Source: a virus (lineage: Duplodnaviria > Heunggongvirae > Uroviricota > Caudoviricetes). From it: a stretch of DNA of 9,883 nt. The DNA is taken from positions 1 to 9,883 of the IMG/VR virus record IMGVR_UViG_2529292735_000024. The stretch is one strand, 5' to 3'. Positions 1 to 9,883 of this stretch are shown here, piece after piece; within the stretch, counting starts at the first letter, position 1, and every line of letters begins with the position of its first letter. The position numbers were made by a program, and so were the translations under genes. The notes below the pieces were generated by a model. The model had not been told where the DNA came from. It saw only the letters and a program-made list of their open reading frames with translations, and did no database searches.

Positions 1-761
1 CTTTTCACGAATAACCGCCATCAGGCTGGCGTAATGCGCGTCATTGTGGATGTGCTGGCGCAGCCAGGCTTCATCATGGCGATGTTCGATAATGGTATTG
101 GCGATGTGGTGACTGGTACGCATACCGTTAGTGGCCATCACCGACAGTACGGCATCGGCCATCAGGGAAACGCCTACGTGTGGATCGCAAAACACCTGGC
201 TGATACCTGCCAGTTGCCCCTGAACCTTTGCCACATCCAGCGTGGTTCCGCCCAAATCCACAATCAGCAGGATTCAAACGGACTCATGTCAGCCAGTGCC
301 TTAAAGCCAGCCGGAATGGATTCAGGCATAACCCGCACGTTACGGATAGTGAATGCTTCGCCGTTCTGGTACTCCACCGGGCGCATAACGTTCGCTTTTT
401 TGCGGCTGATGTTGGCCATGTCCGGCTGTGCGTTTGTGTCGAAATACTCGCTCAGTGGCAGGGTGACAACCACATCCACCTCCTGTGGCGTGATGCCTGA
501 TTTGACCAGCGCGTGATGAATGGCAATGACATTCACATCGCTGTACTGGTATTGCGTGTCGGTCGTCTGGACAAAGCGATCGCTGACCGGATCAAAACCA
601 TAGCGCACGCCATCAAGCATGTAGTTCGCGGGCTGCGTGCCACCGAACGGCGCAGACCATTCCGACTTGAAGCTGTTCGGGCTGATGGCGTTGCGGCGTT
701 CGCCGTTCTCAGTCCATGCCAGCTTGATGTTGGTGGAGCCGTCGTCGATACAAATTTTCAT
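1..761 (-). pseudogene. ParM/StbA-family actin-like ATPase, apparently frameshifted, 3' end beyond window start
   Basis: ORF 264..761 (-) begins MKICIDDGSTNIKLAW and continues ...VMPESIPAGF, matching the N-terminal half of plasmid R1 ParM as I remember it. That frame stops at 264..266, but a different minus-strand frame over 1..263 translates as LLIVDLGGTTLDVAKVQGQLAGISQVFCDPHVGVSLMADAV...IIEHRHDEAWLRQHIHN with no stop, matching the next part of ParM (IIDLGGTTLDISQV...GVSL...IIIHRKD). The junction is consistent with a 1-nt loss in a short C/G run near 268..271. RBS AGGAA 7 nt upstream of the ATG at 761. Confidence 0.6.
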
Positions 762-792
762 GTCGCTTTTCCTTATGTTGATTAATTAATCG

Positions 793-828
793 TTTACGGG
801 ATTCTGAAATCCCGTTTTTGCCTGTTTT
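793..828 (+). repeat. Hairpin-containing repeat unit 1 (stem 796..803 / 808..815, then T5), terminator-like on + strand
   Basis: acgggatt-ctga-aatcccgt followed by ttttt, lying between the gene A stop (838) and the parM-like start (761). Imperfect direct repeat of 866..900. Confidence 0.5.
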
Positions 829-837
829 GTGCGCGCT

Positions 838-3678
838 TCATATATCGCTGCGCGTTTTTTGGTCATTTACGGGATTCGTGAGTCCCGTTTCTGTCTGTTT
901 TTTGTTTCCGCTGGTCAGGCCACCCCGCAGCAGGTCTGCTTTGCGGCGGGCGCGTTCAGTGGTTTCACTGATTCTCTGTGCGTGCTCTGCGTCGCGGATG
1001 GCGCGCAGCATGTCAGAAAGCACGGTAACGGGTGTTTTCATGGTGTTCTGGTCTTGCTGAAGTGTGGATGCCAGGCGTGCGGCGGCTTCAGGGTCTGATG
1101 CCCCCAGCTGTGCCAGATAGCTGGCGACTGGGTTATGGCGGATCTCCGTGCTGCTTACGCCATGATTACGGCTCAGGCGCTGCCAGAGCTGCGTGATTCG
1201 GCTGTCCGGGCGGGTATCCGGTTTGCGTACAATTTCAAATCCCTGCGGTGCAATGATGCTGCCGTCAACGTACAGACTGCCGCCCCGTAACAGGTGCTGC
1301 ATCTGTTGTTCACCGATATGCAGGCCGAGAGATTCAGCAGACTCCCGCCATTCTTTAGCGAGTAATTCGTGGTTATCAGGCAAAGGCCGCTGCTGTTTGC
1401 GGCTCTGTGTCCAGCTCTGCATTTCATCACTGCTGTTTTTTGCCTGTTTGTCACGCAGCGAACGCATCAGCGCCCGGCGTTCGTGCCGTTTCAGTGAGCG
1501 CATCCATTCGTTCACTTCAACGCCGTCAGGGAGCTGCGGCCACGGTGCTGGCCGTTCTTCCGGCTGTTCTGTCCCGTTGTTGTCCGTTTCCTGTACACGG
1601 GGACAGTTATTGCCACGAGTCCAAGGGGCGGCAGGGCCGCCCTGAAGGTCAAAACCATTTTCGCGGGCGCTGTCTTCCGCTTCCGGTTTGCGTCTTACCA
1701 GCTTCCAGTTATCCGGATGCGTGCACACACGGGAGGATTCCCCGATGAGTGGTGACCAGATCCCGTAAATCTGTACGCTCTGTTCGCCGTAATCGTTCAG
1801 CTCATCGGCGAGGTCGTAGGCGGTGCGAATCAGGTAGTCCTTGCGTGGAACAAGTACGCCGCCCTGTTTCTCTATGTAGGTGGCAAAACATCCGGCATCA
1901 GCGGCAGCGAGTACCGCATCCATTGCGTCATCCTTCAGCCGTTGCGGGCCTTCCGGGTTGCGTGCCATCTGGCTGGCAAGGCGGCGGAGTTCACGCCACA
2001 CCTGACGGGAGGGGATGCCAAAGAACTGGAACTGGCGGACCCGGTGAAGGCGCGCCCAGCCGATGGCGCGCTCCACGCTCTCGGCCATTGATTTTCCGGT
2101 TTCGTGGTCAACGCGTGGTTTGCCCGTTTTTGGGTCGATGCCATCCACGGCGCGGCTGTCCAGGTTCTTTCCGATGTAGGTGGCGATGTAGCTGGTTGGC
2201 GTGCCTTTTGAGCCGTCTACATACTCCGCCTTAAAGCGCGGAGTAATATCATCGCCCAGCTCGTGACGATCTTCCTGAATGGCAATATCGCGGGTGTGGG
2301 ACACAATGGTGTCGATTTCTTCCGGATGGGCAAAGACCATCATATGCCAGTGTACGGTGCCGTCATGGTGAGGCTCCACCGTGCGGATGCCATACCAGCG
2401 CAGGCCGTCGCGGTTCAGTTTTTTGCGGACCGCCGCAAAAAACGTGTTAACCAGATAATCGCTGGAGTCGCGCATGGTGGCCCCGTTCCATTTGGGGTTC
2501 GGATGACCGTTCTCCGTTGTTGCGTGGTATTTTGACGGGCAGGTGACAGTCAGAAACACCGCTTTGTCACCACGGGCTTCGGCCAGAAGTTCCAGCCCCT
2601 TCATGGTGGCCATCATTTCTGCCTTACGGTGAACCGGGTTACTTACTCCCGCGTAATACACTGTCTCGAGATCAATCGTGAACCCGTCTTCGTTTTCCAG
2701 CATGAAACTTTTCAGGAAATCGCGTGTTTTCTCGCGCTGTGCGCGAAACTCGCTTAACGCGTCCTGGCTCAGATAGGGTGATGTTTTTCTGGAAACCAGA
2801 CAGGCGGCGCGGAGTTGTTCTTCTCTCCACTCGCAACGTAACAGCCACAGTTTGCGTTTCCACCATTCCGCACAGGTCAGGCGAAGGATTGCGCCCGGCA
2901 GCAGCTCCGTGTCCGGTTCGTTCCTCCGGTCTTTGTCTGTTGTCAGTGCGTCATAATGTGGAGGCATGGCGTGCAGGTGTAACGCCATGCGGGCCAGCAT
3001 CTGATACGCCTTCAGCGTTACATCCATGGTCAGTTCGCCATCAGTCGCGCCAAAGCCATCGCAGAGTTTTTCGAAGGTGCTGCTGAACATCGCCGCCGTC
3101 ATGGTGGCCAGCGTCTGTATCTGGTGTTTGTTGAGCTGCGGCAGGTAAAGCAAATCGTCCAGGCGTTCGCGTCCGGCAAGGGAGCGATAACCCGGTGTCA
3201 GCCAGCGGCTGTCGGTGCGGTCCAGACGTTCGAATATTTTGCGCAGGGTTCCGCGTGCATAGCGTTCCGCCTGCCAGCTCTTTTTGCCTTTCTGACGATC
3301 GGCTTCCTGCTTCTTGCGCAGGAAAGAGAGGTGGCGGCTCAGAGGCTCTCGCAGATAAACGGGAAGCGCCTTCAGTGTGGCAAAGGCACGGGCTACCGGG
3401 TCTTGTTCTGTTGCCCGGCGCTTACTGATGATGCTCTGTGCCAGCTTTTCACGCTGTCCGGCTTCCTCAAGGGATGCCATGAGTTTTTTACCCACGGTGG
3501 ATTGTGCGAAAAAGGCTTCTTCCTTCGCTTCCTGTTCTTCCTGTGCCCTTTTGTCCGCCTCAAGGTAGTAACGGATGGCGCGTTGCAGGTCGGTTTCAGT
3601 TTCCTGCCTGCGCTCCGTAAATCTGGCCGGATCAATGGCTGGCCGTGGTTCATTCCAGCTCCATGCAAACTCACTCAT
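838..3678 (-). CDS. A: Replication initiation endonuclease, phage P2 gpA family (HUH rolling-circle initiator), about 946 aa
   Basis: Long minus-strand ORF with motifs LTVTCPSKYH, VEPHHDGTVHWHMMVF (HUH-type metal motif) and TSYIATYIGKNLD (paired catalytic Tyr), as I remember for P2 gpA. Start placed at ATG 3678 (MSEFAWSWNEPRP) because it overlaps the upstream gene's stop as ATGA; the track's start at 3705 is an in-frame alternative. Confidence 0.85.
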   Translation of the reverse strand: MSEFAWSWNEPRPAIDPARFTERRQETETDLQRAIRYYLEADKRAQEEQEAKEEAFFAQSTVGKKLMASLEEAGQREKLAQSIISKRRATEQDPVARAFATLKALPVYLREPLSRHLSFLRKKQEADRQKGKKSWQAERYARGTLRKIFERLDRTDSRWLTPGYRSLAGRERLDDLLYLPQLNKHQIQTLATMTAAMFSSTFEKLCDGFGATDGELTMDVTLKAYQMLARMALHLHAMPPHYDALTTDKDRRNEPDTELLPGAILRLTCAEWWKRKLWLLRCEWREEQLRAACLVSRKTSPYLSQDALSEFRAQREKTRDFLKSFMLENEDGFTIDLETVYYAGVSNPVHRKAEMMATMKGLELLAEARGDKAVFLTVTCPSKYHATTENGHPNPKWNGATMRDSSDYLVNTFFAAVRKKLNRDGLRWYGIRTVEPHHDGTVHWHMMVFAHPEEIDTIVSHTRDIAIQEDRHELGDDITPRFKAEYVDGSKGTPTSYIATYIGKNLDSRAVDGIDPKTGKPRVDHETGKSMAESVERAIGWARLHRVRQFQFFGIPSRQVWRELRRLASQMARNPEGPQRLKDDAMDAVLAAADAGCFATYIEKQGGVLVPRKDYLIRTAYDLADELNDYGEQSVQIYGIWSPLIGESSRVCTHPDNWKLVRRKPEAEDSARENGFDLQGGPAAPWTRGNNCPRVQETDNNGTEQPEERPAPWPQLPDGVEVNEWMRSLKRHERRALMRSLRDKQAKNSSDEMQSWTQSRKQQRPLPDNHELLAKEWRESAESLGLHIGEQQMQHLLRGGSLYVDGSIIAPQGFEIVRKPDTRPDSRITQLWQRLSRNHGVSSTEIRHNPVASYLAQLGASDPEAAARLASTLQQDQNTMKTPVTVLSDMLRAIRDAEHAQRISETTERARRKADLLRGGLTSGNKKQTETGLTNPVNDQKTRSDI
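866..900 (+). repeat. Hairpin-containing repeat unit 2 (stem 869..876 / 881..888, then T-rich tract), inside the 3' end of gene A
   Basis: tttacgggattcgtgagtcccgtttctgtctgtttt aligns to unit 1 at roughly 85% identity, about 73 bp away. Confidence 0.45.
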
Positions 3679-4064
3679 GGCTGGTATCCCATCACGCGCT
3701 GCCACTCCTGCGAGAAGAGGGTGGAAAGGCGGTTAAATTCAGCGGTGTATTCACTCAGCGAGGCACACCCGCCAGCAGTGCGATGCGCCAGCATTGCCGC
3801 GAATACGGAGGCCGGGGAGTCGTAATACGCCAGCAGTGATTCGCCGTGTGGTGTCAGGCAGTGCAACGCCAGCCCGTGTGGTGTGAAGTCCACGCGGTAG
3901 CAGTCGTCTACTGTGAAATAAAGGGTGTCCGCATTCTCCGGTTTTGTAGTGCGTGCTCTGTTGTCACGACCACGGATGTAAAGATCAAATAATCCCTGAA
4001 GAACGGGAGCCAGACGGGTGTCCTGTGTGCGCACCCATCTTGTGAAGTCATGAGCGTCAATCAT
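3675..4064 (-). CDS. Hypothetical early-operon protein (129 aa), translationally coupled to gene A
   Basis: ORF with protein-like composition; its stop overlaps the gene A start (ATGA at 3675..3678). Contains a duplicated TPHG motif encoded by an 11-bp direct repeat. No family recognised. Confidence 0.55.
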   Translation of the reverse strand: MIDAHDFTRWVRTQDTRLAPVLQGLFDLYIRGRDNRARTTKPENADTLYFTVDDCYRVDFTPHGLALHCLTPHGESLLAYYDSPASVFAAMLAHRTAGGCASLSEYTAEFNRLSTLFSQEWQRVMGYQP

Positions 4065-4136
4065 GCTGCAATTCTCTTTACTACAGATGTGCGAAGGCCT
4101 CCCGCCGCAAGGTGCAGGAAAGGCCCGGAACAGGAA

Positions 4137-4367
4137 TTAATGGAGTTTGTTTTGCTGCTGGATGAGCTGCTGAAGCTCGCGCAGATCATCCGCCAGATAG
4201 CTGAAAACAGCGGATGAGTAGAGGTTTGAAAGTTCGCAGCTACGCTCATGCAGCATATTGATGTGCATGATTTTAGCGACGCGGAATGCGCGGGAAAGTC
4301 TGCGGTTGATTTCAGTCTGGATGTGACGACGCTCCGCGATAGCGCGGTGCTGTTTGCGGTTTGCCAT
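4137..4367 (-). CDS. Hypothetical small basic protein (76 aa)
   Basis: MANRKQHRAIAERRHIQTEINRRLSRAF... is charged and helical in character. SD AGAGG sits 9 nt upstream of the ATG at 4367. Function unknown. Confidence 0.55.
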   Translation of the reverse strand: MANRKQHRAIAERRHIQTEINRRLSRAFRVAKIMHINMLHERSCELSNLYSSAVFSYLADDLRELQQLIQQQNKLH

Positions 4368-4375
4368 GATATGTG

Positions 4376-4700
4376 GCCTCTTGTAGTAAGTTGTGAAAAC
4401 TCACCATCCAGAGGTTCCAAGCTCGGGGTGGTGAGACGTACAGGGTTGGAACTACCGGCTACAAGAGATCCCGGCCCGACCGAAATCGGCCCCGTACGCC
4501 CCACCATAATTCGTGTGCGAAAAAGACGTGGCAATACAGTACGCACAAAAAAACCGCTGGCGCGGTTGTGCGCTCTTGTAGTCTGCGGGGTTCCAATCCC
4601 GGCACCCGTTTTATGAGGTGCAGCGGAAATGTAACCTGACTGATTGCGGCATGGCAAGCGGTTTTTTTGTGAGAACGGCATACTAAAAAATCCTGATGCT
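4376..4700 (-). other. Structured non-coding region between the SPFH cassette and the 76-aa gene (candidate leader or regulatory RNA)
   Basis: About 330 bp without a convincing ORF. The 9-mer ctcttgtag occurs at 4378..4386 and 4573..4581 and its complement ctacaagag at 4459..4467; ggttccaa at 4413..4420 and 4589..4596 with ttggaac at 4446..4452; A7 at 4547..4553, T7 at 4662..4668, A6 at 4685..4690. Confidence 0.4.
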
Positions 4701-4703
4701 GCT

Positions 4704-4728
4704 CCGGCCAGCGGTTTCCACTGGCCGG
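4704..4728 (-). terminator. GC-rich hairpin just downstream of the SPFH gene stop (possible terminator or RNA-stability element)
   Basis: ccggccag (4704..4711) pairs with ctggccgg (4721..4728), 9-nt loop with two more possible G-C pairs. On the sense (minus) strand a U6 tract follows only after about 14 nt, so it is not a canonical intrinsic terminator. Confidence 0.4.
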
Positions 4729-4734
4729 GTTTAA

Positions 4735-5565
4735 TTACTTCACCGGAACAAACGGAACAGCGGTATTACTGGTCATGTATTGCGGCAGCGTGCCGTTCCA
4801 TTTGTTGATAGCTTCCAGCTCCATAACGCCGGGGTTCTGGCGCAGAGCTTCACCGCGCAAACGAATGGCGTCGGCTTCAGCCTGGGCTTTTGTGCGAATG
4901 GCATCAGCCTGTCCGGCTGCTTCTGCGCGTAGCATGTTGGCTTCTGCTTCGCGCTGCTTGACTTCCTGTTCGCGTTGCAGAGTTTTCTGGTTTGCCGTGA
5001 CTTTGGCATTAATGCTGTCGATAACGGTTGGTGGGTATTCCGGTTTACCGACATAAGAGAGGCTCATTACCTGAATGCCGATAGGTGTCATTTCTGCCTG
5101 AATGTCTTTAAGTGCTGAATCCAGCAGTTCAGACTTGCCACCGTCGATAAACTTATCGGTGGTCATTTTGCTGGCCAGTCGGTTGAGTGCATCGGCGATC
5201 TTTTGGCGCAGGTCAGTGTCGGTAATGTCATCCACGCCTTTGCGGTAGGTCTGAAACACTGTGGTAACTTTGGATGGATCAACCTTGTAGGCCACACCGA
5301 TGTGATAGCCGATGGTTGTGCCGTCACTCATCTGAAAGCTGAATGGCTCATCGTAGGTCTTCATTTGTTTGAAGGTCGGGAAGATGTAAACCTCGGTATT
5401 CCAGCCTGTCCAGTAGCGGCCAACGCCAACCACTTCACCGACGCCTTTATCGTCGCCCAGTTTGTTGACTTTGATGCCCACATTACCTGGCTCAACGCGA
5501 TCGCAACCAACCAGCAGGATGGCGGCAAAAAGCGGGATAATCTGAAAGAGTTTGAATTTCTTCAT
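4735..5565 (-). CDS. SPFH/Band-7 (stomatin/prohibitin/HflC-like) domain lipoprotein, 276 aa
   Basis: N-terminus MKKFKLFQIIPLFAAILLVGC is a signal peptide with lipobox LVGC. The body has an SPFH-like core followed by an A/E/Q/R-rich coiled-coil tail (REQEVKQREAEANMLRAEAAGQADAIRTKAQAEADAIRLRGEAL). SD AGGAA 8 nt upstream; start overlaps the upstream stop as ATGA. Confidence 0.8.
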   Translation of the reverse strand: MKKFKLFQIIPLFAAILLVGCDRVEPGNVGIKVNKLGDDKGVGEVVGVGRYWTGWNTEVYIFPTFKQMKTYDEPFSFQMSDGTTIGYHIGVAYKVDPSKVTTVFQTYRKGVDDITDTDLRQKIADALNRLASKMTTDKFIDGGKSELLDSALKDIQAEMTPIGIQVMSLSYVGKPEYPPTVIDSINAKVTANQKTLQREQEVKQREAEANMLRAEAAGQADAIRTKAQAEADAIRLRGEALRQNPGVMELEAINKWNGTLPQYMTSNTAVPFVPVK

Positions 5566-5765
5566 TGTTTGATTTCCTTGATGTACTTACTGAAAAGGCG
5601 AACAACGCCTGCCGGGTACAGCATGGCAATGAAAATGCCCAGCAATACCAGGAAGGAGCTGTCTGATGAAATCATTCGGGGGAGTAGTCCTGCATACAGA
5701 ATGAGAGAAAAGAGGACGCATACCAGCGCCCACATGTATGCGCGAAACCAGGTCCTTTCGTTCAT
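5562..5765 (-). CDS. Small two-TM membrane protein (67 aa), partner of the SPFH lipoprotein
   Basis: Two hydrophobic segments (WALVCVLFSLILYAGLL and FLVLLGIFIAMLYPAGVV). ATGA overlap with the upstream gene at 5762..5765 and with the SPFH gene at 5562..5565. Confidence 0.65.
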   Translation of the reverse strand: MNERTWFRAYMWALVCVLFSLILYAGLLPRMISSDSSFLVLLGIFIAMLYPAGVVRLFSKYIKEIKQ

Positions 5766-5980
5766 GTCGGTTGCTCTCTTTTGTTATTCAGGAAAAAGTC
5801 AAAAACGTTATCGATGCGCATCATGAGTTCGCGCTGCATCGCTTCTGGTGTTTCTGGTTCGCCAGGTGATCCAAACCCAGCGAAGAAATCACCGATCTCG
5901 CTTTGAATGAGTTCCTTTAGTGTTGGCGGGGAGCTCAGGCGTGTGCGGCGATGTCTGCGTGTAATTCTCCTTCTGTTCAT
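5762..5980 (-). CDS. Small protein with arginine-rich N-terminus (72 aa), first gene of the SPFH cassette
   Basis: MNRRRITRRHRRTRLS... followed by an acidic/hydrophobic C-terminal part. SD AGGAG 8 nt upstream of the ATG at 5980 but embedded in a hairpin. Coding status less certain than its neighbours. Confidence 0.5.
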   Translation of the reverse strand: MNRRRITRRHRRTRLSSPPTLKELIQSEIGDFFAGFGSPGEPETPEAMQRELMMRIDNVFDFFLNNKREQPT

Positions 5981-6019
5981 CCGTGTGACTCCTGTAACTG
6001 TCGGACAGGGCTCACACGG
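5981..6019 (-). promoter_or_regulatory. Stable hairpin abutting the start codon of the cassette's first gene, occluding its SD
   Basis: Outer stem ccgtgtga (5981..5988) / tcacacgg (6012..6019), inner stem cctgt (5991..5995) / acagg (6005..6009), 9-nt loop. On the minus-sense RNA the SD aggag (complement of 5989..5993) lies within the paired region. Confidence 0.45.
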
Positions 6020-6095
6020 AATGGCAGTGATTTTTGGGTAGACATTCTTTGTACGGCAGTCGTCAGTTCACGTGGTTCCTGGTGGTTGATGGTGC

Positions 6096-6362
6096 TCATG
6101 CTCTGGCTTCCTTCAGTAGCTGGTTAAACATGTGGGTTAGTGGGTTGCCACACCCGAACGGCATCGGGTTTACGTGGTAAGAAGCCTGGCCTCCAGTTTT
6201 GCGAGCGCGACCACCTGTGCTGCGGTTTGTTCTGATGACTAAGCCGCCGCGCCAAAGTTGGCGTAACTCAGCATTAATGGCTGTGGTTGGAGTATTCAGT
6301 GCTGCGGCGATCTCTCCGCCGCTACACCCCGGATGAGTAGCGATGTAGTCCAGAATGGTCAT
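6096..6362 (-). CDS. Hypothetical protein, possible HTH/winged-helix DNA-binding protein (88 aa)
   Basis: MTILDYIATHPGCSGGEIAAALNTPTTAINAELRQLWRGGLV resembles an HTH recognition region. ATGA overlap with the upstream gene at 6359..6362. Confidence 0.55.
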   Translation of the reverse strand: MTILDYIATHPGCSGGEIAAALNTPTTAINAELRQLWRGGLVIRTNRSTGGRARKTGGQASYHVNPMPFGCGNPLTHMFNQLLKEARA

Positions 6363-6562
6363 CTGCGTGGCTCCTGTACCTGTCGGATAAGGTTTACCCG
6401 CGCCACATTAGTGGCGCAGAAGTAAGTGCCGTCAGTGAGGTAGATGTGGTGTGCATCCTTTTCCGAACGATGTTTGTCGATAGTGGTAATCAGGCGTTCG
6501 TCGACCTCGTATTCGCGCCCTCTGGAGGTAAAGCGAACGACGGGAAAATGCTTAATTGCCAT
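6359..6562 (-). CDS. Hypothetical early-operon protein (67 aa)
   Basis: ORF with a G-rich SD (aaggggg) upstream; translationally coupled to the downstream 88-aa gene. Confidence 0.5.
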   Translation of the reverse strand: MAIKHFPVVRFTSRGREYEVDERLITTIDKHRSEKDAHHIYLTDGTYFCATNVARVNLIRQVQEPRR

Positions 6563-6585
6563 TGCGCCCCCTTTGTCCAGTAACT

Positions 6586-6996
6586 CTATGCGTTAAATAC
6601 GGTGCACTGTGCGTCATCAATGAATGCGACTTGAGAGCGCTCTATCAGGCGGAGATTTGTCAGAATTTCTGATTCCCTTATGGGGTGAGGAGTGATCAGG
6701 TATTTATCCTGTAACCCGGCGATAATGGTGTATCGCTGTAGCTCCGAGCCAATTGTGTAAATAAGGCGTCCGGTGTTAGACAAATCCAGTCCGGTGACTG
6801 GTTGTGTTCTGAGAACCGCCAGTTCAGCATCCTGTTTTGCGATAATTTCGGCTGCTTCTGCCGTGACTCTTGCGACTATCAGTGTGTGGGTTGCGACGTC
6901 CATATGTGCATTTGCCACGGCTTTTTTCGCTACTTCGTTTTCTGTCTTTGAAATTTCTTTCAGTGCTCTGATGATACCTTCTTCTTTTGCGTGCAT
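6586..6996 (-). CDS. Hypothetical early-operon protein (136 aa)
   Basis: Strong SD GGAGA 8 nt upstream of the ATG at 6996; protein-like composition; no family recognised. Confidence 0.6.
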   Translation of the reverse strand: MHAKEEGIIRALKEISKTENEVAKKAVANAHMDVATHTLIVARVTAEAAEIIAKQDAELAVLRTQPVTGLDLSNTGRLIYTIGSELQRYTIIAGLQDKYLITPHPIRESEILTNLRLIERSQVAFIDDAQCTVFNA

Positions 6997-7089
6997 TTTT
7001 GTATCTCCGTTATTTGCGTGTGCGAATACCTCCGTTAATACGGAAGGTTTTCACGTTTTCTTATTTAATTTGATGCTTTATTTGTATCG

Positions 7090-7203
7090 TTATTCACCAG
7101 TGAAAAAGCGTTCAATCTTTTTTACTGAATGAATAATTCGCATAATCCCAATGGCGCAGGCCACCGAAATAATCAGAACAAGCCATGAGATAAATATACT
7201 CAT
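7090..7203 (-). CDS. Small hydrophobic membrane peptide (37 aa), absent from the ORF track
   Basis: Hand translation of the minus strand gives MSIFISWLVLIISVACAIGIMRIIHSVKKIERFFTGE then stop: one TM-like helix plus a basic tail. Its ATG (7201..7203) overlaps the stop of the 80-aa gene as ATGA (7200..7203). Confidence 0.4.
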   Translation of the reverse strand: MSIFISWLVLIISVACAIGIMRIIHSVKKIERFFTGE

Positions 7204-7442
7204 GCGATATTCCCCAGCTTATACGGTTCAATATGTTCCCCGCATTCTGCGGCACAGATCAGCTCGGAAAGTTCGTTAAGTGCATCCAGATCATCAGCGT
7301 AAAAAGCGACGTCATACAAACTCCGGATTGCCCTGGTCAATGAGTCACGGGCTGCACGTTCAGCATGAGCGCCTGATGCACTTAAGCGAAAATAAAATCG
7401 TTCAAGTGCTTTGTTAATGAGAGTTTTATATTCTTTGCCCAT
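7200..7442 (-). CDS. Hypothetical early-operon protein (80 aa)
   Basis: ORF with SD AAGGG 7 nt upstream of the ATG at 7442; no family recognised. Confidence 0.5.
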   Translation of the reverse strand: MGKEYKTLINKALERFYFRLSASGAHAERAARDSLTRAIRSLYDVAFYADDLDALNELSELICAAECGEHIEPYKLGNIA

Positions 7443-7453
7443 CGCAACGCCCT

Positions 7454-7732
7454 TTAATCTGCTTTCTGTATTTCAGCTTCTGAATCCATACAAATAATTT
7501 CGATATATGGTTCATCGCCATTAACCTGACGTGCCTTTTCAGCTTCGCTAATGATTTCTCGCACGGTCTGGTACGGAAGCTCCACAGTCAGGCGCGTACC
7601 GTTCAGATAAACGTAAGTAGCTGCGTTTTTTTCGGATGGAACAACTCCGTCAATGGCTGATGCGCGTAATAACAGTTCACCGCGAAAATCAATAAAACGG
7701 ATAAATACACCTTGTGCATGCTCTTTGGTCAT
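7454..7732 (-). CDS. Hypothetical early-operon protein (about 92 aa; start moved to internal ATG 7732)
   Basis: The track ORF 7454..7792 would overlap the upstream gene by about 50 bp. The internal ATG at 7732 (MTKEHAQGVFIRF...) follows the upstream stop by 10 nt and has AGGTG upstream. Confidence 0.5.
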   Translation of the reverse strand: MTKEHAQGVFIRFIDFRGELLLRASAIDGVVPSEKNAATYVYLNGTRLTVELPYQTVREIISEAEKARQVNGDEPYIEIICMDSEAEIQKAD

Positions 7733-7742
7733 AAAGCACCTG

Positions 7743-8084
7743 TTATAAATCAGCCTGTTTAATAAAACTTTGCCCACGAAGCAGACGATCAACCGTGCGA
7801 AGTGCTTCGTATAATGTGAAATCCTGCCCGAATTGATTGTCGCCGCAGCTCAATGCAAAAATGCGGTTTCCGGTAAACGGATTGCGTGGGCATTTATGGA
7901 CCACGATTCCAGCTTTCTCAATCAGCCAGGCATGCTCGCCGATTTGTTTTACTGGGTAGCCATCCGGCGTTGCGTGTGTATCACTCAGGCTGTAGCGGAT
8001 GTTGCTGCGTGATGCACTGGTAGCGAAACGGTTAGCGTGGCGTTCAGCACCATTACGAAAGCGTGAATTACGTTGCTGTTTCAT
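7743..8084 (-). CDS. Hypothetical early-operon protein (113 aa), first gene after the Cox-position regulator
   Basis: SD GGGAG 7 nt upstream of the ATG at 8084; 18-nt gap after the upstream stop; no family recognised. Confidence 0.55.
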   Translation of the reverse strand: MKQQRNSRFRNGAERHANRFATSASRSNIRYSLSDTHATPDGYPVKQIGEHAWLIEKAGIVVHKCPRNPFTGNRIFALSCGDNQFGQDFTLYEALRTVDRLLRGQSFIKQADL

Positions 8085-8102
8085 ATCAAAACTCCCTGCA
8101 TC

Positions 8103-8429
8103 TCATGCAGCAAAATTAAGAAAGCCTAATCCCAAATCTTCCGCCAGCTTCTTGGCTTTCTTAAGCCAGTGATTGCGCCAATCTTTACGCTCAGGAGGAA
8201 GCTGTTTCGTTGCGTCATAGACCATTTCGAGCCACTCATTCCAAAGGATGAGAAGACGGCGCGAACTCCCTTCCTCGCCTAAAACCTCGCGCTCAGTAGT
8301 TAGAGGGATGAGTCGACGCTCTACCAACTTTCTTACGGCTGATTCGGTCTTACCTGTGCGGCGGGAAAACTCATCGACGGTGATGGGGTCTGGGATCTTA
8401 AACAATGCCCTCAATAGTTCTTCATTCAT
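8103..8429 (-). CDS. Cox-position HTH DNA-binding regulator / putative excisionase (about 108 aa)
   Basis: Divergent from the repressor gene, as cox is in P2-like phages. HTH-like segment ITVDEFSRRTGKTESAVRKLVERRLIP. Start set at ATG 8429 (MNEELLRALF) with SD GGGAG 8 nt upstream; the track start at 8498 looks like an upstream extension. By my recollection it does not closely resemble P2 Cox in sequence. Confidence 0.6.
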   Translation of the reverse strand: MNEELLRALFKIPDPITVDEFSRRTGKTESAVRKLVERRLIPLTTEREVLGEEGSSRRLLILWNEWLEMVYDATKQLPPERKDWRNHWLKKAKKLAEDLGLGFLNFAA

Positions 8430-8524
8430 GTGATAATCTCCCTGTTTGGGGTATTTCTTGCGACGGATGCCCCAAATCAAACTCATTTGTATAAACATTA
8501 ATACAGACGTTGGAGAATTGCAAC
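8430..8524. promoter_or_regulatory. Lysis-lysogeny switch region between the divergent regulator and repressor genes (putative early and repressor promoters and operators)
   Basis: A 95-bp AT-rich interval. Minus-strand candidate promoter: TTGCAA (complement of about 8518..8523) then TATTAAT-like -10 about 15 bp downstream. Inverted repeats tttgggg (8443..8449) / ccccaaa (8470..8476) and gtat/atac around 8489..8504. Exact promoters and operators cannot be fixed from sequence alone. Confidence 0.45.
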
Positions 8525-8827
8525 ATGCGTATGACTATTGGAGAGCGCATAAAAATCATGCGTGAAAGCGAGAGACTTACTAGCCTCCCGGATACAGCAA
8601 AAATGCTTGGTTTAAACCGTGATGCTCTGTGGAGATATGAAAGCGGTAAAACTATCCCTAATGCTGAAGTAATTGAGCAAATACTAAACAACCCCAGATT
8701 TGAGAAATATGCGTTGTGGTTTATGACTGGGAAAATTGCGCCTGAATCCGGGCAGATAGCTCCGGCTCTCGCACACTATGGGCAAGAGCCAACGGACTTA
8801 CCCCCATCCGAAAGGAAAATTGGCTAA
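8525..8827 (+). CDS. C: Immunity repressor, P2 C-like (about 100 aa)
   Basis: MRMTIGERIKIMRESERLTSLPDTAKMLGL...ALWFMTGKIAPESGQIAPALAHYGQ closely resembles P2 C as I remember it. Start set at ATG 8525 with GGAG 9 nt upstream; the track's start at 8510 is a TTG. Confidence 0.85.
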   Translation: MRMTIGERIKIMRESERLTSLPDTAKMLGLNRDALWRYESGKTIPNAEVIEQILNNPRFEKYALWFMTGKIAPESGQIAPALAHYGQEPTDLPPSERKIG

Positions 8828-8893
8828 CCCTTTATTATTCTTACGTTTTACAAACTGGAAATGTCTTTCCTCGTTTCACCGGAGGGCTTGCCA

Positions 8894-9883
8894 ATGGCAA
8901 TTAAAGCGCTCGATGGTGGACGGTATAAAGTGGATGTTAGACCGCGTGGCCGAAGTGGACGTCGGATTCAGCGGATTTTTAAGAAAAAGGCAGATGCAGT
9001 GGCCTTTGAGCGTTATGTTCTCAGCCACATGCACGATAAGGAATGGCTTGAAAAGCCAACAGAGCAACGTCATCTCTCAGATCTGCTTCCGTTATGGTGG
9101 GAATTGGGTGGACGCAATAAGCCATATGCTAACGGCGTTCTAACCAGGTTGAAAAAAATCATCAAAGAAATGAATGATCCAAGGGTTAGCCAGATTAATG
9201 CTCGTTTCATGGCCGCTTATCGAAGCTCCCGTTTATCCTTGGGAGTAAAAGAGTCTACTGTTCGGCGTGATGAGTCGGATCTCGGAGGAATGTTTACACT
9301 CCTGGCAAATGCCGGGGAATTTCACGGAGAAAATCCGCTCCGCGCCCTCCCCTCTTTGAAACGAAAATCACCCGAAATGACGTATCTCACCACGGAAGAA
9401 ATCGCCAAATTACTGGATGCAGTAAGCGGTGATGCCCGGCGGATTACGCTACTTTGTCTCAGTACTGGGGCGAGATGGGGAGAAGCGAAAAATCTGCGCG
9501 CGGAACACATCATCAATAATCGCGTGACGTTTAACAAAACTAAAAACGGAAAAGTTCGAATTATTCCTGTCTCTGATGAAGTTGTTAGTGAGATCAAAAC
9601 AAAGAAATCCGGCCTTTTGTTTGACGTCAATTATGAGGAATATCGCAAGGTGCTTCGCAGTGTTAAGCCAGACCTACCAAAAGGACAGGCTGTACATGTT
9701 CTACGCCATACCTTTGCTGCTCACTTTATGATTAATGGAGGAAATATACTTACGCTCCAGCGAATTATGGGGCACGCTACGATCCAGCAAACTATGACCT
9801 ATGCGCACCTCGCTCCTGATTTCCTCCAGGATGCAATTTCACTTAATCCGTTAAAAGGAGGCATCCACATTTCATCCACATAA
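8894..9883 (+). CDS. int: Tyrosine integrase, P2 Int-like (329 aa)
   Basis: From MAIKALDGGRYKVDVRPRGRSGRRIQRIF the protein parallels P2 Int (MAIKKLDDGRYEVDIRP...) and carries the catalytic-region motifs LSTGARWGEA, HVLRHTFAAHFMINGG and LGHATIQQTMTYAHL. SD GGAGGG 7 nt upstream of ATG 8894; the track start at 8861 is an in-frame upstream ATG. The stop is the last codon of the window. Confidence 0.9.
   Translation: MAIKALDGGRYKVDVRPRGRSGRRIQRIFKKKADAVAFERYVLSHMHDKEWLEKPTEQRHLSDLLPLWWELGGRNKPYANGVLTRLKKIIKEMNDPRVSQINARFMAAYRSSRLSLGVKESTVRRDESDLGGMFTLLANAGEFHGENPLRALPSLKRKSPEMTYLTTEEIAKLLDAVSGDARRITLLCLSTGARWGEAKNLRAEHIINNRVTFNKTKNGKVRIIPVSDEVVSEIKTKKSGLLFDVNYEEYRKVLRSVKPDLPKGQAVHVLRHTFAAHFMINGGNILTLQRIMGHATIQQTMTYAHLAPDFLQDAISLNPLKGGIHISST

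Follow-up and report, generated by a model that had tools for sequence, protein, structure and literature searches.

We describe here a pair of coupled membrane-protein genes in a stretch of 9,883 nucleotides (nt), positions 1 to 9,883 of the IMG/VR virus record IMGVR_UViG_2529292735_000024, which we will call the window. The window is a P88-like (Xuanwuvirus, Peduoviridae) prophage of the P2 family, in which a long series of small minus-strand genes runs from the Cox-like gene to the replication gene A. Two of these small genes form the subject of this work. The upstream one encodes a protein of 67 amino acids (aa) with two hydrophobic helices, and the downstream one a lipoprotein of 276 aa with an SPFH/Band 7 domain:

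5562-5765, minus strand: two-helix membrane partner, 67 aa (phrog_1130)
4735-5565, minus strand: SPFH/Band 7 lipoprotein, 276 aa (Pfam Band_7, phrog_200)

The sequence-only reading of this locus had proposed a cassette of three translationally coupled genes, in which a 72-aa protein with an arginine-rich N-terminus precedes these two. Its coordinates were borne out, both for the three open reading frames (ORFs; 72 aa at 5762-5980, 67 aa at 5562-5765 and 276 aa at 4735-5565) and for the ATGA overlaps at 5762-5765 and 5562-5565. The three-gene unit was not: the 72-aa ORF is an allele of a phage backbone gene, phrog_4144, that is also present where there are no SPFH genes. The conserved unit is made of two genes, the 67-aa two-helix protein and the 276-aa SPFH lipoprotein.

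The two-gene unit and its proteins

The ATGA overlap at 5562-5565 couples the translation of the two genes, and their adjacency is maintained well beyond this prophage. In IMG/VR, about 78 of 82 close viral loci have a two-helix ORF that directly precedes the SPFH gene, with an overlap of 4 or 20 nt. On contigs taken from one genome per species, the loop motif of the partner (given below) was found upstream of the SPFH gene in 44 of the 66 genome loci, and these motif-positive loci include Enterobacterales, Sutterella, Dyella, Rhodanobacter, Pseudomonas, Dependentiae, Saprospirales, Bacteroidales and Flavobacterium. For this locus scan, an alignment of 42 sequences was too diverse, and one of 10 sequences worked. 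A looser ORF scan recovered two of the motif misses (L094 and L103), while 14 of the misses are Cytophagales/Chitinophaga-type and other homologues with 26-38% identity. In two close misses, on the chromosomes of Shigella flexneri and Escherichia coli (L088 and L089), an IS1 element (InsA and InsB ORFs, at about 5200-5950 there) lies directly upstream, in the place of the partner. The association also holds when it is approached from the other side, as a look-up by exact sequence of five partner clusters found a Band_7 gene immediately downstream in all 14 places. Thus, the idea that the genes travel as a trio stands for the pair, which is co-conserved, and falls for the third gene, which is independent of it.

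A HMMER search over 1.84 billion cluster representatives gave 2,894 relatives of the SPFH protein at E<1e-3 and 221 at E<1e-30, and a lipobox is found in most of the best 150. Of these 150 distant representatives (of clusters at the 50% identity level), about 20 are fusions that carry, in this order, the two-helix N-terminus, the lipobox and the SPFH domain. Such natural fusions are a classic sign that the two-helix and SPFH proteins work together. In a single representative (P0129), the fusion has the reverse order, with the two-helix module at the C-terminal end of the SPFH protein. A different arrangement is seen in rV5-like phages (GAP31; L156, 1133-2367), where an additional 54-aa gene lies between the partner and the SPFH gene.

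The 276-aa protein matches Band_7 (PF01145) with an E value of 7.6e-31 and 107.9 bits against a cut-off of 23.6, over positions 2-176 of the 176 of the profile, and it matches the phrog_200 'lipoprotein' profile at E 8.8e-112. Its N-terminus, MKKFKLFQIIPLFAAILLVGC-DR, is a lipoprotein signal with the lipobox LLVGC, Cys21 and an Asp at position +2, and its C-terminus carries a conserved W-x-G-x-L-P motif. In the AlphaFold (AF2) model, strands at 62-95 and 164-176 are followed by a long helix of 65 residues (179-243). The Band_7 profile match, the lipobox and this predicted helix agree with the earlier description of the protein as an SPFH/Band-7 lipoprotein with a coiled-coil tail. Foldseek searches with the model retrieved the cage subunits of prohibitin, HflK/C, erlin, stomatin and flotillin with E values from 1e-10 to 1e-5, and the modelled protein is of the cage-type SPFH fold, with a long coiled-coil helix behind the alpha/beta core. 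By sequence, HflK is its best match of known structure (E 7e-4), and the closest curated NCBIfam families are HflK (TIGR01933, 22.7 bits) and HflC (TIGR01932, 24.8 bits), both far below their thresholds of 159.4 and 134.4 bits.

The Cys-Asp pair of the lipobox is present in 102 of 120 close clusters. In several widespread, SSU5-like lineages (P0113, P0116-P0120, P0045, P0046, P0052 and P0053), of which P0116 alone is found on 175 contigs, Tyr, Trp or Phe has taken the position of the lipobox Cys, and these lineages would have an uncleaved signal-anchor helix instead of the lipid anchor. In GenBank, the SPFH protein is labelled 'serine protease' in many records, and 'transposase', 'transferase' or 'peptidyl-tRNA hydrolase' in single ones; none of these labels is supported, since SPFH is the sole domain that we found.

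The 67-aa partner matches phrog_1130 (E 8.1e-23) and has the two hydrophobic, presumably transmembrane, helices that were first read in it, with basic residues at both ends. The loop between the helices carries the motif h-h-P-x-[LMF]-[ILVM]-S-x-x-[SD]-[TS]; across 22 diverse partners, Pro29 is invariant, and Ser33 and Gly43 are nearly so. A search with the single 67-aa sequence found close relatives only, and the profile made from the 22 partners reached further, being still limited by the word index. Profile searches for Band_7/SPFH and NfeD domains had been suggested from the sequence alone. The first gave the match described above, and the second left the partner unmatched: neither the 67-aa protein nor two distant partners has any Pfam or NCBIfam match. 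We considered NfeD as an identity for the partner and rejected it, for want of a domain match and because 67 aa are too short for the NfeD OB-fold domain.

Three very different types of partner are found next to much the same SPFH protein, of 67 aa in the P88 type, of 78 aa in P1-like phage-plasmids and of 62 aa in the lambdoid phages Stx and phiP27. These types are 20-43% identical among themselves, and the adjoining whole SPFH proteins are 91-93% identical. At the DNA level, homology to the SPFH genes of Stx phages (about 92%) ends at position 5505 of the window, in the Cys21 codon (5503-5505), and homology to those of P1-like elements (about 87%) ends a few bases past position 5505. As DNA homology ends at the Cys21 codon, the partner and the signal peptide appear to have been swapped as one block, separately from the mature SPFH domain.

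Three known systems are useful for comparison. The E. coli FtsH modulators HflK and HflC (PDB 7VHP/7WI3/9CZ2) share the SPFH core, the long coiled-coil helix and a placement, predicted for the window protein, in which the domain faces the periplasm from the inner membrane. Unlike them, the window has a single SPFH gene and a lipid anchor instead of a transmembrane helix, and the membrane helices come from the separate 67-aa protein. The SPFH-NfeD operons (stomatin/QmcA-YbbJ, YqiK-YqiJ) resemble the pair in that an SPFH gene is adjacent to and co-oriented with a gene for a small membrane protein, in a conserved partnership with occasional fusion. Unlike NfeD, however, the window partner has no OB-fold and has its own loop motif, and its gene is upstream of the SPFH gene and translationally coupled to it. 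Finally, gp11 and gp12 of Escherichia phage P88 (PHROG 1130 and 200) are the same two genes at the same position, with 99% protein identity for SPFH, and are annotated as 'membrane protein' and as 'lipoprotein' or 'SPFH domain protein'. The one difference between the window and P88 here is in which allele of the phrog_4144 gene lies next to the pair.

Optional cargo in the early operon

The following features delimit the variable part of the locus:

4672-6016: segment without DNA homology to PV468777 (blastn breakpoints 4671 and 6017)
4704-4728: 11-bp GC-rich hairpin (z -3.7 vs shuffled controls)

In PV468777, a P88-like phage that has no such cassette, 232 bp stand in place of 4672-6016, and the pair is absent from many P88-like E. 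coli prophages that are otherwise collinear. The pair is optional cargo in P88-like prophages. The 4704-4728 hairpin lies 7 nt past the SPFH stop codon, within the variable segment and just before the backbone promoter-like site of isrK (4657-4628). It is not a canonical intrinsic terminator, because the U-run of the coding strand starts 13 nt after the stem.

The minus-strand genes between 6996 and 4735 follow each other closely or overlap, and a consensus scan of the coding strand over 5766-6996 found no promoter-like site upstream of the pair, a crude match from which a weak internal promoter may escape. We also looked for an anomaly of base composition and found none, the guanine-plus-cytosine (GC) fraction of the cassette being 0.46-0.54 against 0.52-0.56 for the flanks. 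The cassette had been likened to a moron-style insertion bounded by its own hairpins. Both hairpins (the second one, at 5980-6020, is treated below) are indeed stable and the segment is optional, but there is no promoter-like site of its own, the U-tract is not adjacent to the stem and the GC content is normal. Strictly speaking, it is no moron: it shows presence and absence among related prophages, and shows neither its own promoter and terminator nor an atypical composition. The pair is probably read together with the upstream early lytic genes, downstream of the Cox-like gene. The early operons in which P2-like phages carry the pair are controlled by the repressor, and this makes the lysogen-defence form of the exclusion idea less likely.

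In lambdoid prophages, the pair has the CI-like repressor gene on one side and xis/int on the other, all on one strand, which is the region of the nonessential genes of the lambda pL operon. This placement after a CI-like repressor gene, seen in Pseudomonas and enteric lambdoid prophages, could be taken for co-expression with the repressor in the lysogen; we rejected it as evidence for this, as it is the normal layout of the lambda pL operon.

The pair and its homologues are not restricted to one phage lifestyle. A tblastn search found SPFH homologues in 379 of 50,697 phage records. Temperate carriers include P88, Stx phages, phiP27, P1-like phages, SSU5 and phi1026b, and virulent carriers include the N4-like vB_EamP-S6, the rV5-like GAP31, the jumbo phage Munch, Bruynoghevirus, phiCbK-like phages, a crAss-like phage and Lak megaphages. 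Among seven sampled phages, a motif-bearing partner is present in vB_EamP-S6, SSU5, Munch, GAP31 and phi1026b, and absent in U47 and CcrSwift. In 5,426 complete E. coli genomes, the P88-type pair was found in 145 and any SPFH homologue at the DNA level in 711 (13%), with about half of the places on plasmids. In Dyella, Saprospirales and contigs from soil and gut, the pair lies amid ordinary metabolic genes. Such chromosomal neighbourhoods suggest a bacterial membrane module that was acquired by phages, and not an invention of phages.

Neighbouring genes and phage backbone

Two ORFs directly upstream of the pair derive from the phrog_4144 backbone gene:

5762-5980, minus strand: 72-aa Arg-rich ORF, short hybrid allele of the phrog_4144 gene
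5977-6099, minus strand: 40-aa ORF, N-terminal remnant of the same phrog_4144 gene
5980-6020: 16-bp hairpin (z -4.35 vs shuffled controls)

The 40-aa ORF is a fourth coupled ORF that the earlier gene list had missed; it overlaps the 72-aa ORF in an ATGA at 5977-5980, as the 72-aa ORF overlaps the 67-aa ORF at 5762-5765. The phrog_4144 gene, which NCBI names 'ead/Ea22-like', forms one uninterrupted ORF of 104 aa in P88, where it precedes the two-helix gene, and is split in the window into the 40-aa and 72-aa ORFs with a divergent middle. The 72-aa protein aligns only to positions 34-99 of the 99 of the phrog_4144 profile, and its homology to the 99-104 aa form is limited to the C-terminal 45 aa or so. 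In PV468777, the gene is intact (99 aa) and directly followed by the isrK promoter region; in E. coli A36, it is also intact (99 aa), at 10 nt from the two-helix gene; in E. coli N50, the short form is called a pseudogene by RefSeq. Of about 56 P88-type loci, some 38 have the 99-104 aa allele and some 17 the 72-aa Arg-rich allele. A one-off frameshift was rejected as an explanation of the 72-aa ORF, since this allele recurs in about 17 loci with its own substitutions. Judged by these sequence comparisons, the 72-aa form is a persistent allele of a backbone gene, and it is outside the conserved module, as loci with the phrog_4144 gene may have or lack the SPFH pair, and the gene itself exists as two alleles.

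The origin of the short allele may be traced in part to a 28-nt ribosome-binding junction, CCGACAG[G/T]TACAGGAG[C/T]CAC[G/A]C[A/G]GATGA, that is found at 5977-6004 and 6359-6386 on the minus strand (2 matches vs 0 expected by chance), at the start of the 72-aa ORF and at that of a MarR-like gene. From this duplication, gene junctions seem to have recombined with one another. In the 5980-6020 hairpin, the Shine-Dalgarno sequence (AGGAG) of the 72-aa ORF is paired with an upstream sequence inside the 40-aa ORF, so translating the 40-aa ORF would probably open the ribosome-binding site of the 72-aa ORF.

The rest of the window is laid out as follows:

8861-9883, plus strand: integrase
8510-8827, plus strand: helix-turn-helix repressor
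8103-8498, minus strand: Cox-family gene, divergent from the repressor gene
4547-4621, minus strand: isrK small RNA, Rfam-certified (71 bits), with a promoter-like site in front
4424-4511, minus strand: C4 antisense RNA, Rfam-certified (79 bits), with a promoter-like site in front
4137-4367, minus strand: gene for a 76-aa 'derepression protein' (Pfam PF25738), just downstream of isrK/C4
838-3705, minus strand: GPA-family replication gene (gene A)
264-761, minus strand: ParM-like gene

The nearest named relative is Escherichia phage P88, whose gene order is identical and which covers 92% of a 2 kb query around the pair with 91% nucleotide identity. A Salmonella enterica chromosome encodes an SPFH protein identical to that of the window. 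The distance from cox to gene A had been put at about 4.4 kb against roughly 2 kb in P2, and we measured 4.4 kb (8103 to 3705) against 1.75 kb. The view of the cassette as an insertion that fills this gap holds in part: the segment is optional, but the cassette contributes only about 1.1 kb, and most of the excess over P2 is made of a different, P88-type set of early genes and of the isrK/C4 RNA module. Together with the derepression gene, isrK and C4 look like a P1/P7-style antisense-controlled derepressor module, here in a P2-family phage.

Some other features of the backbone deserve mention. A 206-aa ORF at 4061-4681 on the minus strand overlaps isrK, C4 and the derepression gene, and is almost certainly not a gene; at this position, related records annotate a remnant of an 'ash family protein'. 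The replication protein is of 955 aa against 761 aa for P2 gpA, and, as in P88, the replication gene is followed by a ParM-type plasmid-segregation gene, which is unusual for an integrating P2-family phage. Lastly, the AT-rich stretch at 6997-7199 (GC 0.37) breaks the tight packing of the early genes and holds only a short ORF with a hydrophobic stretch, where P88 has an annotated 37-aa 'membrane protein'; it could be the site of an internal regulatory element.

What the pair may do

No function had been known for these genes at the first reading, and we found none in the searchable literature. Searches for SPFH or Band 7 with phage, prophage, anti-phage, superinfection or early genes returned only genome notes that call the role unclear and one paper on Pasteurella virulence, and reported no function for the pair. 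The presence of SPFH proteins in phages has been called unexplained (PMC13239085, PMC8540360).

We propose the following architecture. The 67-aa protein would insert in the inner membrane with both termini in the cytoplasm, as expected from the basic residues at both of its ends, and the conserved P-x-h-h-S loop would then be its only part exposed to the periplasm. The SPFH protein would be exported, lipidated at Cys21 and held on the outer face of the inner membrane by the Asp at +2. Three routes, namely this Asp, the signal-anchor variants and the fusions, lead to the same placement, with the SPFH domain at the inner membrane on its periplasmic side, which is the topology of HflK/C. The pair would in this way rebuild from two separate proteins the HflK/C layout of a transmembrane fence with a periplasmic SPFH cage, and the resulting ring or cage would enclose a patch of inner membrane. 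The module would be made early after infection or induction, with the genes of the early promoter, and not in the quiescent lysogen. We give this reading of architecture and early expression, taken as a whole and leaving out any specific function, a probability of about 0.5.

Several points weigh against it. The proposed timing, location, assembly and client are all predictions. A weak promoter within the operon would alter the timing. The AF2 model has a moderate confidence (predicted local distance difference test, pLDDT, of 65), with residues 16-64 and 246-276 poorly predicted. At +2, Ser, Thr or Gly is found in most of the distant homologues, and these residues predict the outer membrane under the sorting rules of E. 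coli, so that the inner-membrane argument comes to rest on the partner and the fusions. In addition, a prophage SPFH protein of Pasteurella is reported to be expressed and to serve as a virulence factor (PMC9872710).

As the pair has virulent carriers and seems to be expressed with early lytic genes in temperate phages, a role during infection is likelier than the protection of a resting lysogen. Among the infection-stage roles that we weighed, the exclusion of secondary DNA probably comes first, ahead of membrane protection and the retuning of FtsH. Our leading guess, a tentative one to which we give clearly less than even odds, is that a change of the inner membrane in the already-infected cell blocks the entry of secondary phage DNA. 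Small envelope-level superinfection-exclusion proteins such as T4 Imm and Sp, T5 Llp and HK97 gp15 are phage membrane proteins or lipoproteins that are dispensable for growth; none of them, to our knowledge, has an SPFH domain, and no homology was detected between them and the pair. Against this guess, nothing links the pair to DNA entry, and PADLOC gave no match for the SPFH protein and only a 21-residue match (E 0.0076) for the partner.

The pair might instead be a mimic or a competitor of HflK/C that forms around FtsH or a different protease of the inner membrane, or takes the place of the host HflK/C cage, and thereby retunes the degradation of phage regulators or host membrane proteins in early infection. 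The authors of a Bruynoghevirus paper also raised this idea (PMC8540360). In its favour, HflK and HflC are the nearest relatives in both sequence and structure, with SPFH domains that likewise look into the periplasm and form a cage around FtsH, and the SPFH gene is placed among early regulatory genes. We find it unlikely nonetheless: the equivalog models reach 22-25 bits where 134-159 are required, a single SPFH gene stands here against the pair of HflK/C, and the module is carried by strictly virulent phages, which have no lysis-lysogeny decision to make.

SPFH proteins are general membrane scaffolds, and a scaffold could also make the infected cell's inner membrane more resistant to premature triggering of holins, to leakage at DNA injection or to membrane-disrupting abortive-infection effectors of the host, and so serve membrane protection, counter-defence or lysis timing. 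The position among early or accessory genes in virulent and temperate phages alike would suit such a role, and the chromosomal homologues in housekeeping neighbourhoods suggest a generic membrane function that phages borrowed later. However, none of the examined loci links the module to lysis genes, and we hold this role to be just as unlikely as HflK/C mimicry.

The sequence-only reading favoured a self-contained, moron-style defence module of three genes, expressed from the prophage and protecting the lysogen by superinfection exclusion or abortive infection. It is true that the segment is present or absent among related prophages and that it encodes envelope proteins, as many exclusion systems do; the divergence of the partners (20-43%) beside a mature SPFH domain that is about 91-93% identical could even reflect an arms race. 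But the third gene is a backbone gene that is not co-conserved with the pair, the pair has no promoter-like site upstream and is coupled to the upstream early genes, neither a PADLOC match nor a GC anomaly was found, and virulent phages carry the pair as well, all of which makes this quite improbable. Least probable of all is a lipoprotein of lysogenic conversion or virulence that would leave the cell in outer-membrane vesicles and be recognised by TLR1/2 of the host, as is reported for PM0222 of Pasteurella multocida, a prophage-encoded HflK/C-like SPFH protein of 25-35 kDa that was found in vesicles and whose deletion mutant was attenuated (PMC9872710). Any homology of PM0222 to this subfamily is putative, both the Asp at +2 and a partner in the inner membrane speak against export to the surface or into vesicles, the pair is placed in an early lytic operon, and the gene is also carried by phages of soil, plant and aquatic bacteria.

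If the inner-membrane cage made early in infection is taken further, a bolder and rather doubtful view is that the pair is an unrecognised, ancient, split HflK/C-like cage module, repeatedly captured from bacterial chromosomes by unrelated virulent and temperate phages. It would wall off a patch of the inner membrane early, for instance against superinfecting DNA or membrane-acting host immunity, and its fast-diverging partner would set the specificity.

At the level of annotation, the unit should be described as two genes instead of three, and the 'serine protease' label as one without support. The roles of bacterial SPFH proteins are poorly understood beyond HflK/C and FtsH, and the pair is such a system in minimal form, with two genes and a partner other than NfeD. 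The fusions and the strict adjacency make for a clear hypothesis as to which proteins cooperate, and one that is genetically tractable in P88 or its hosts.

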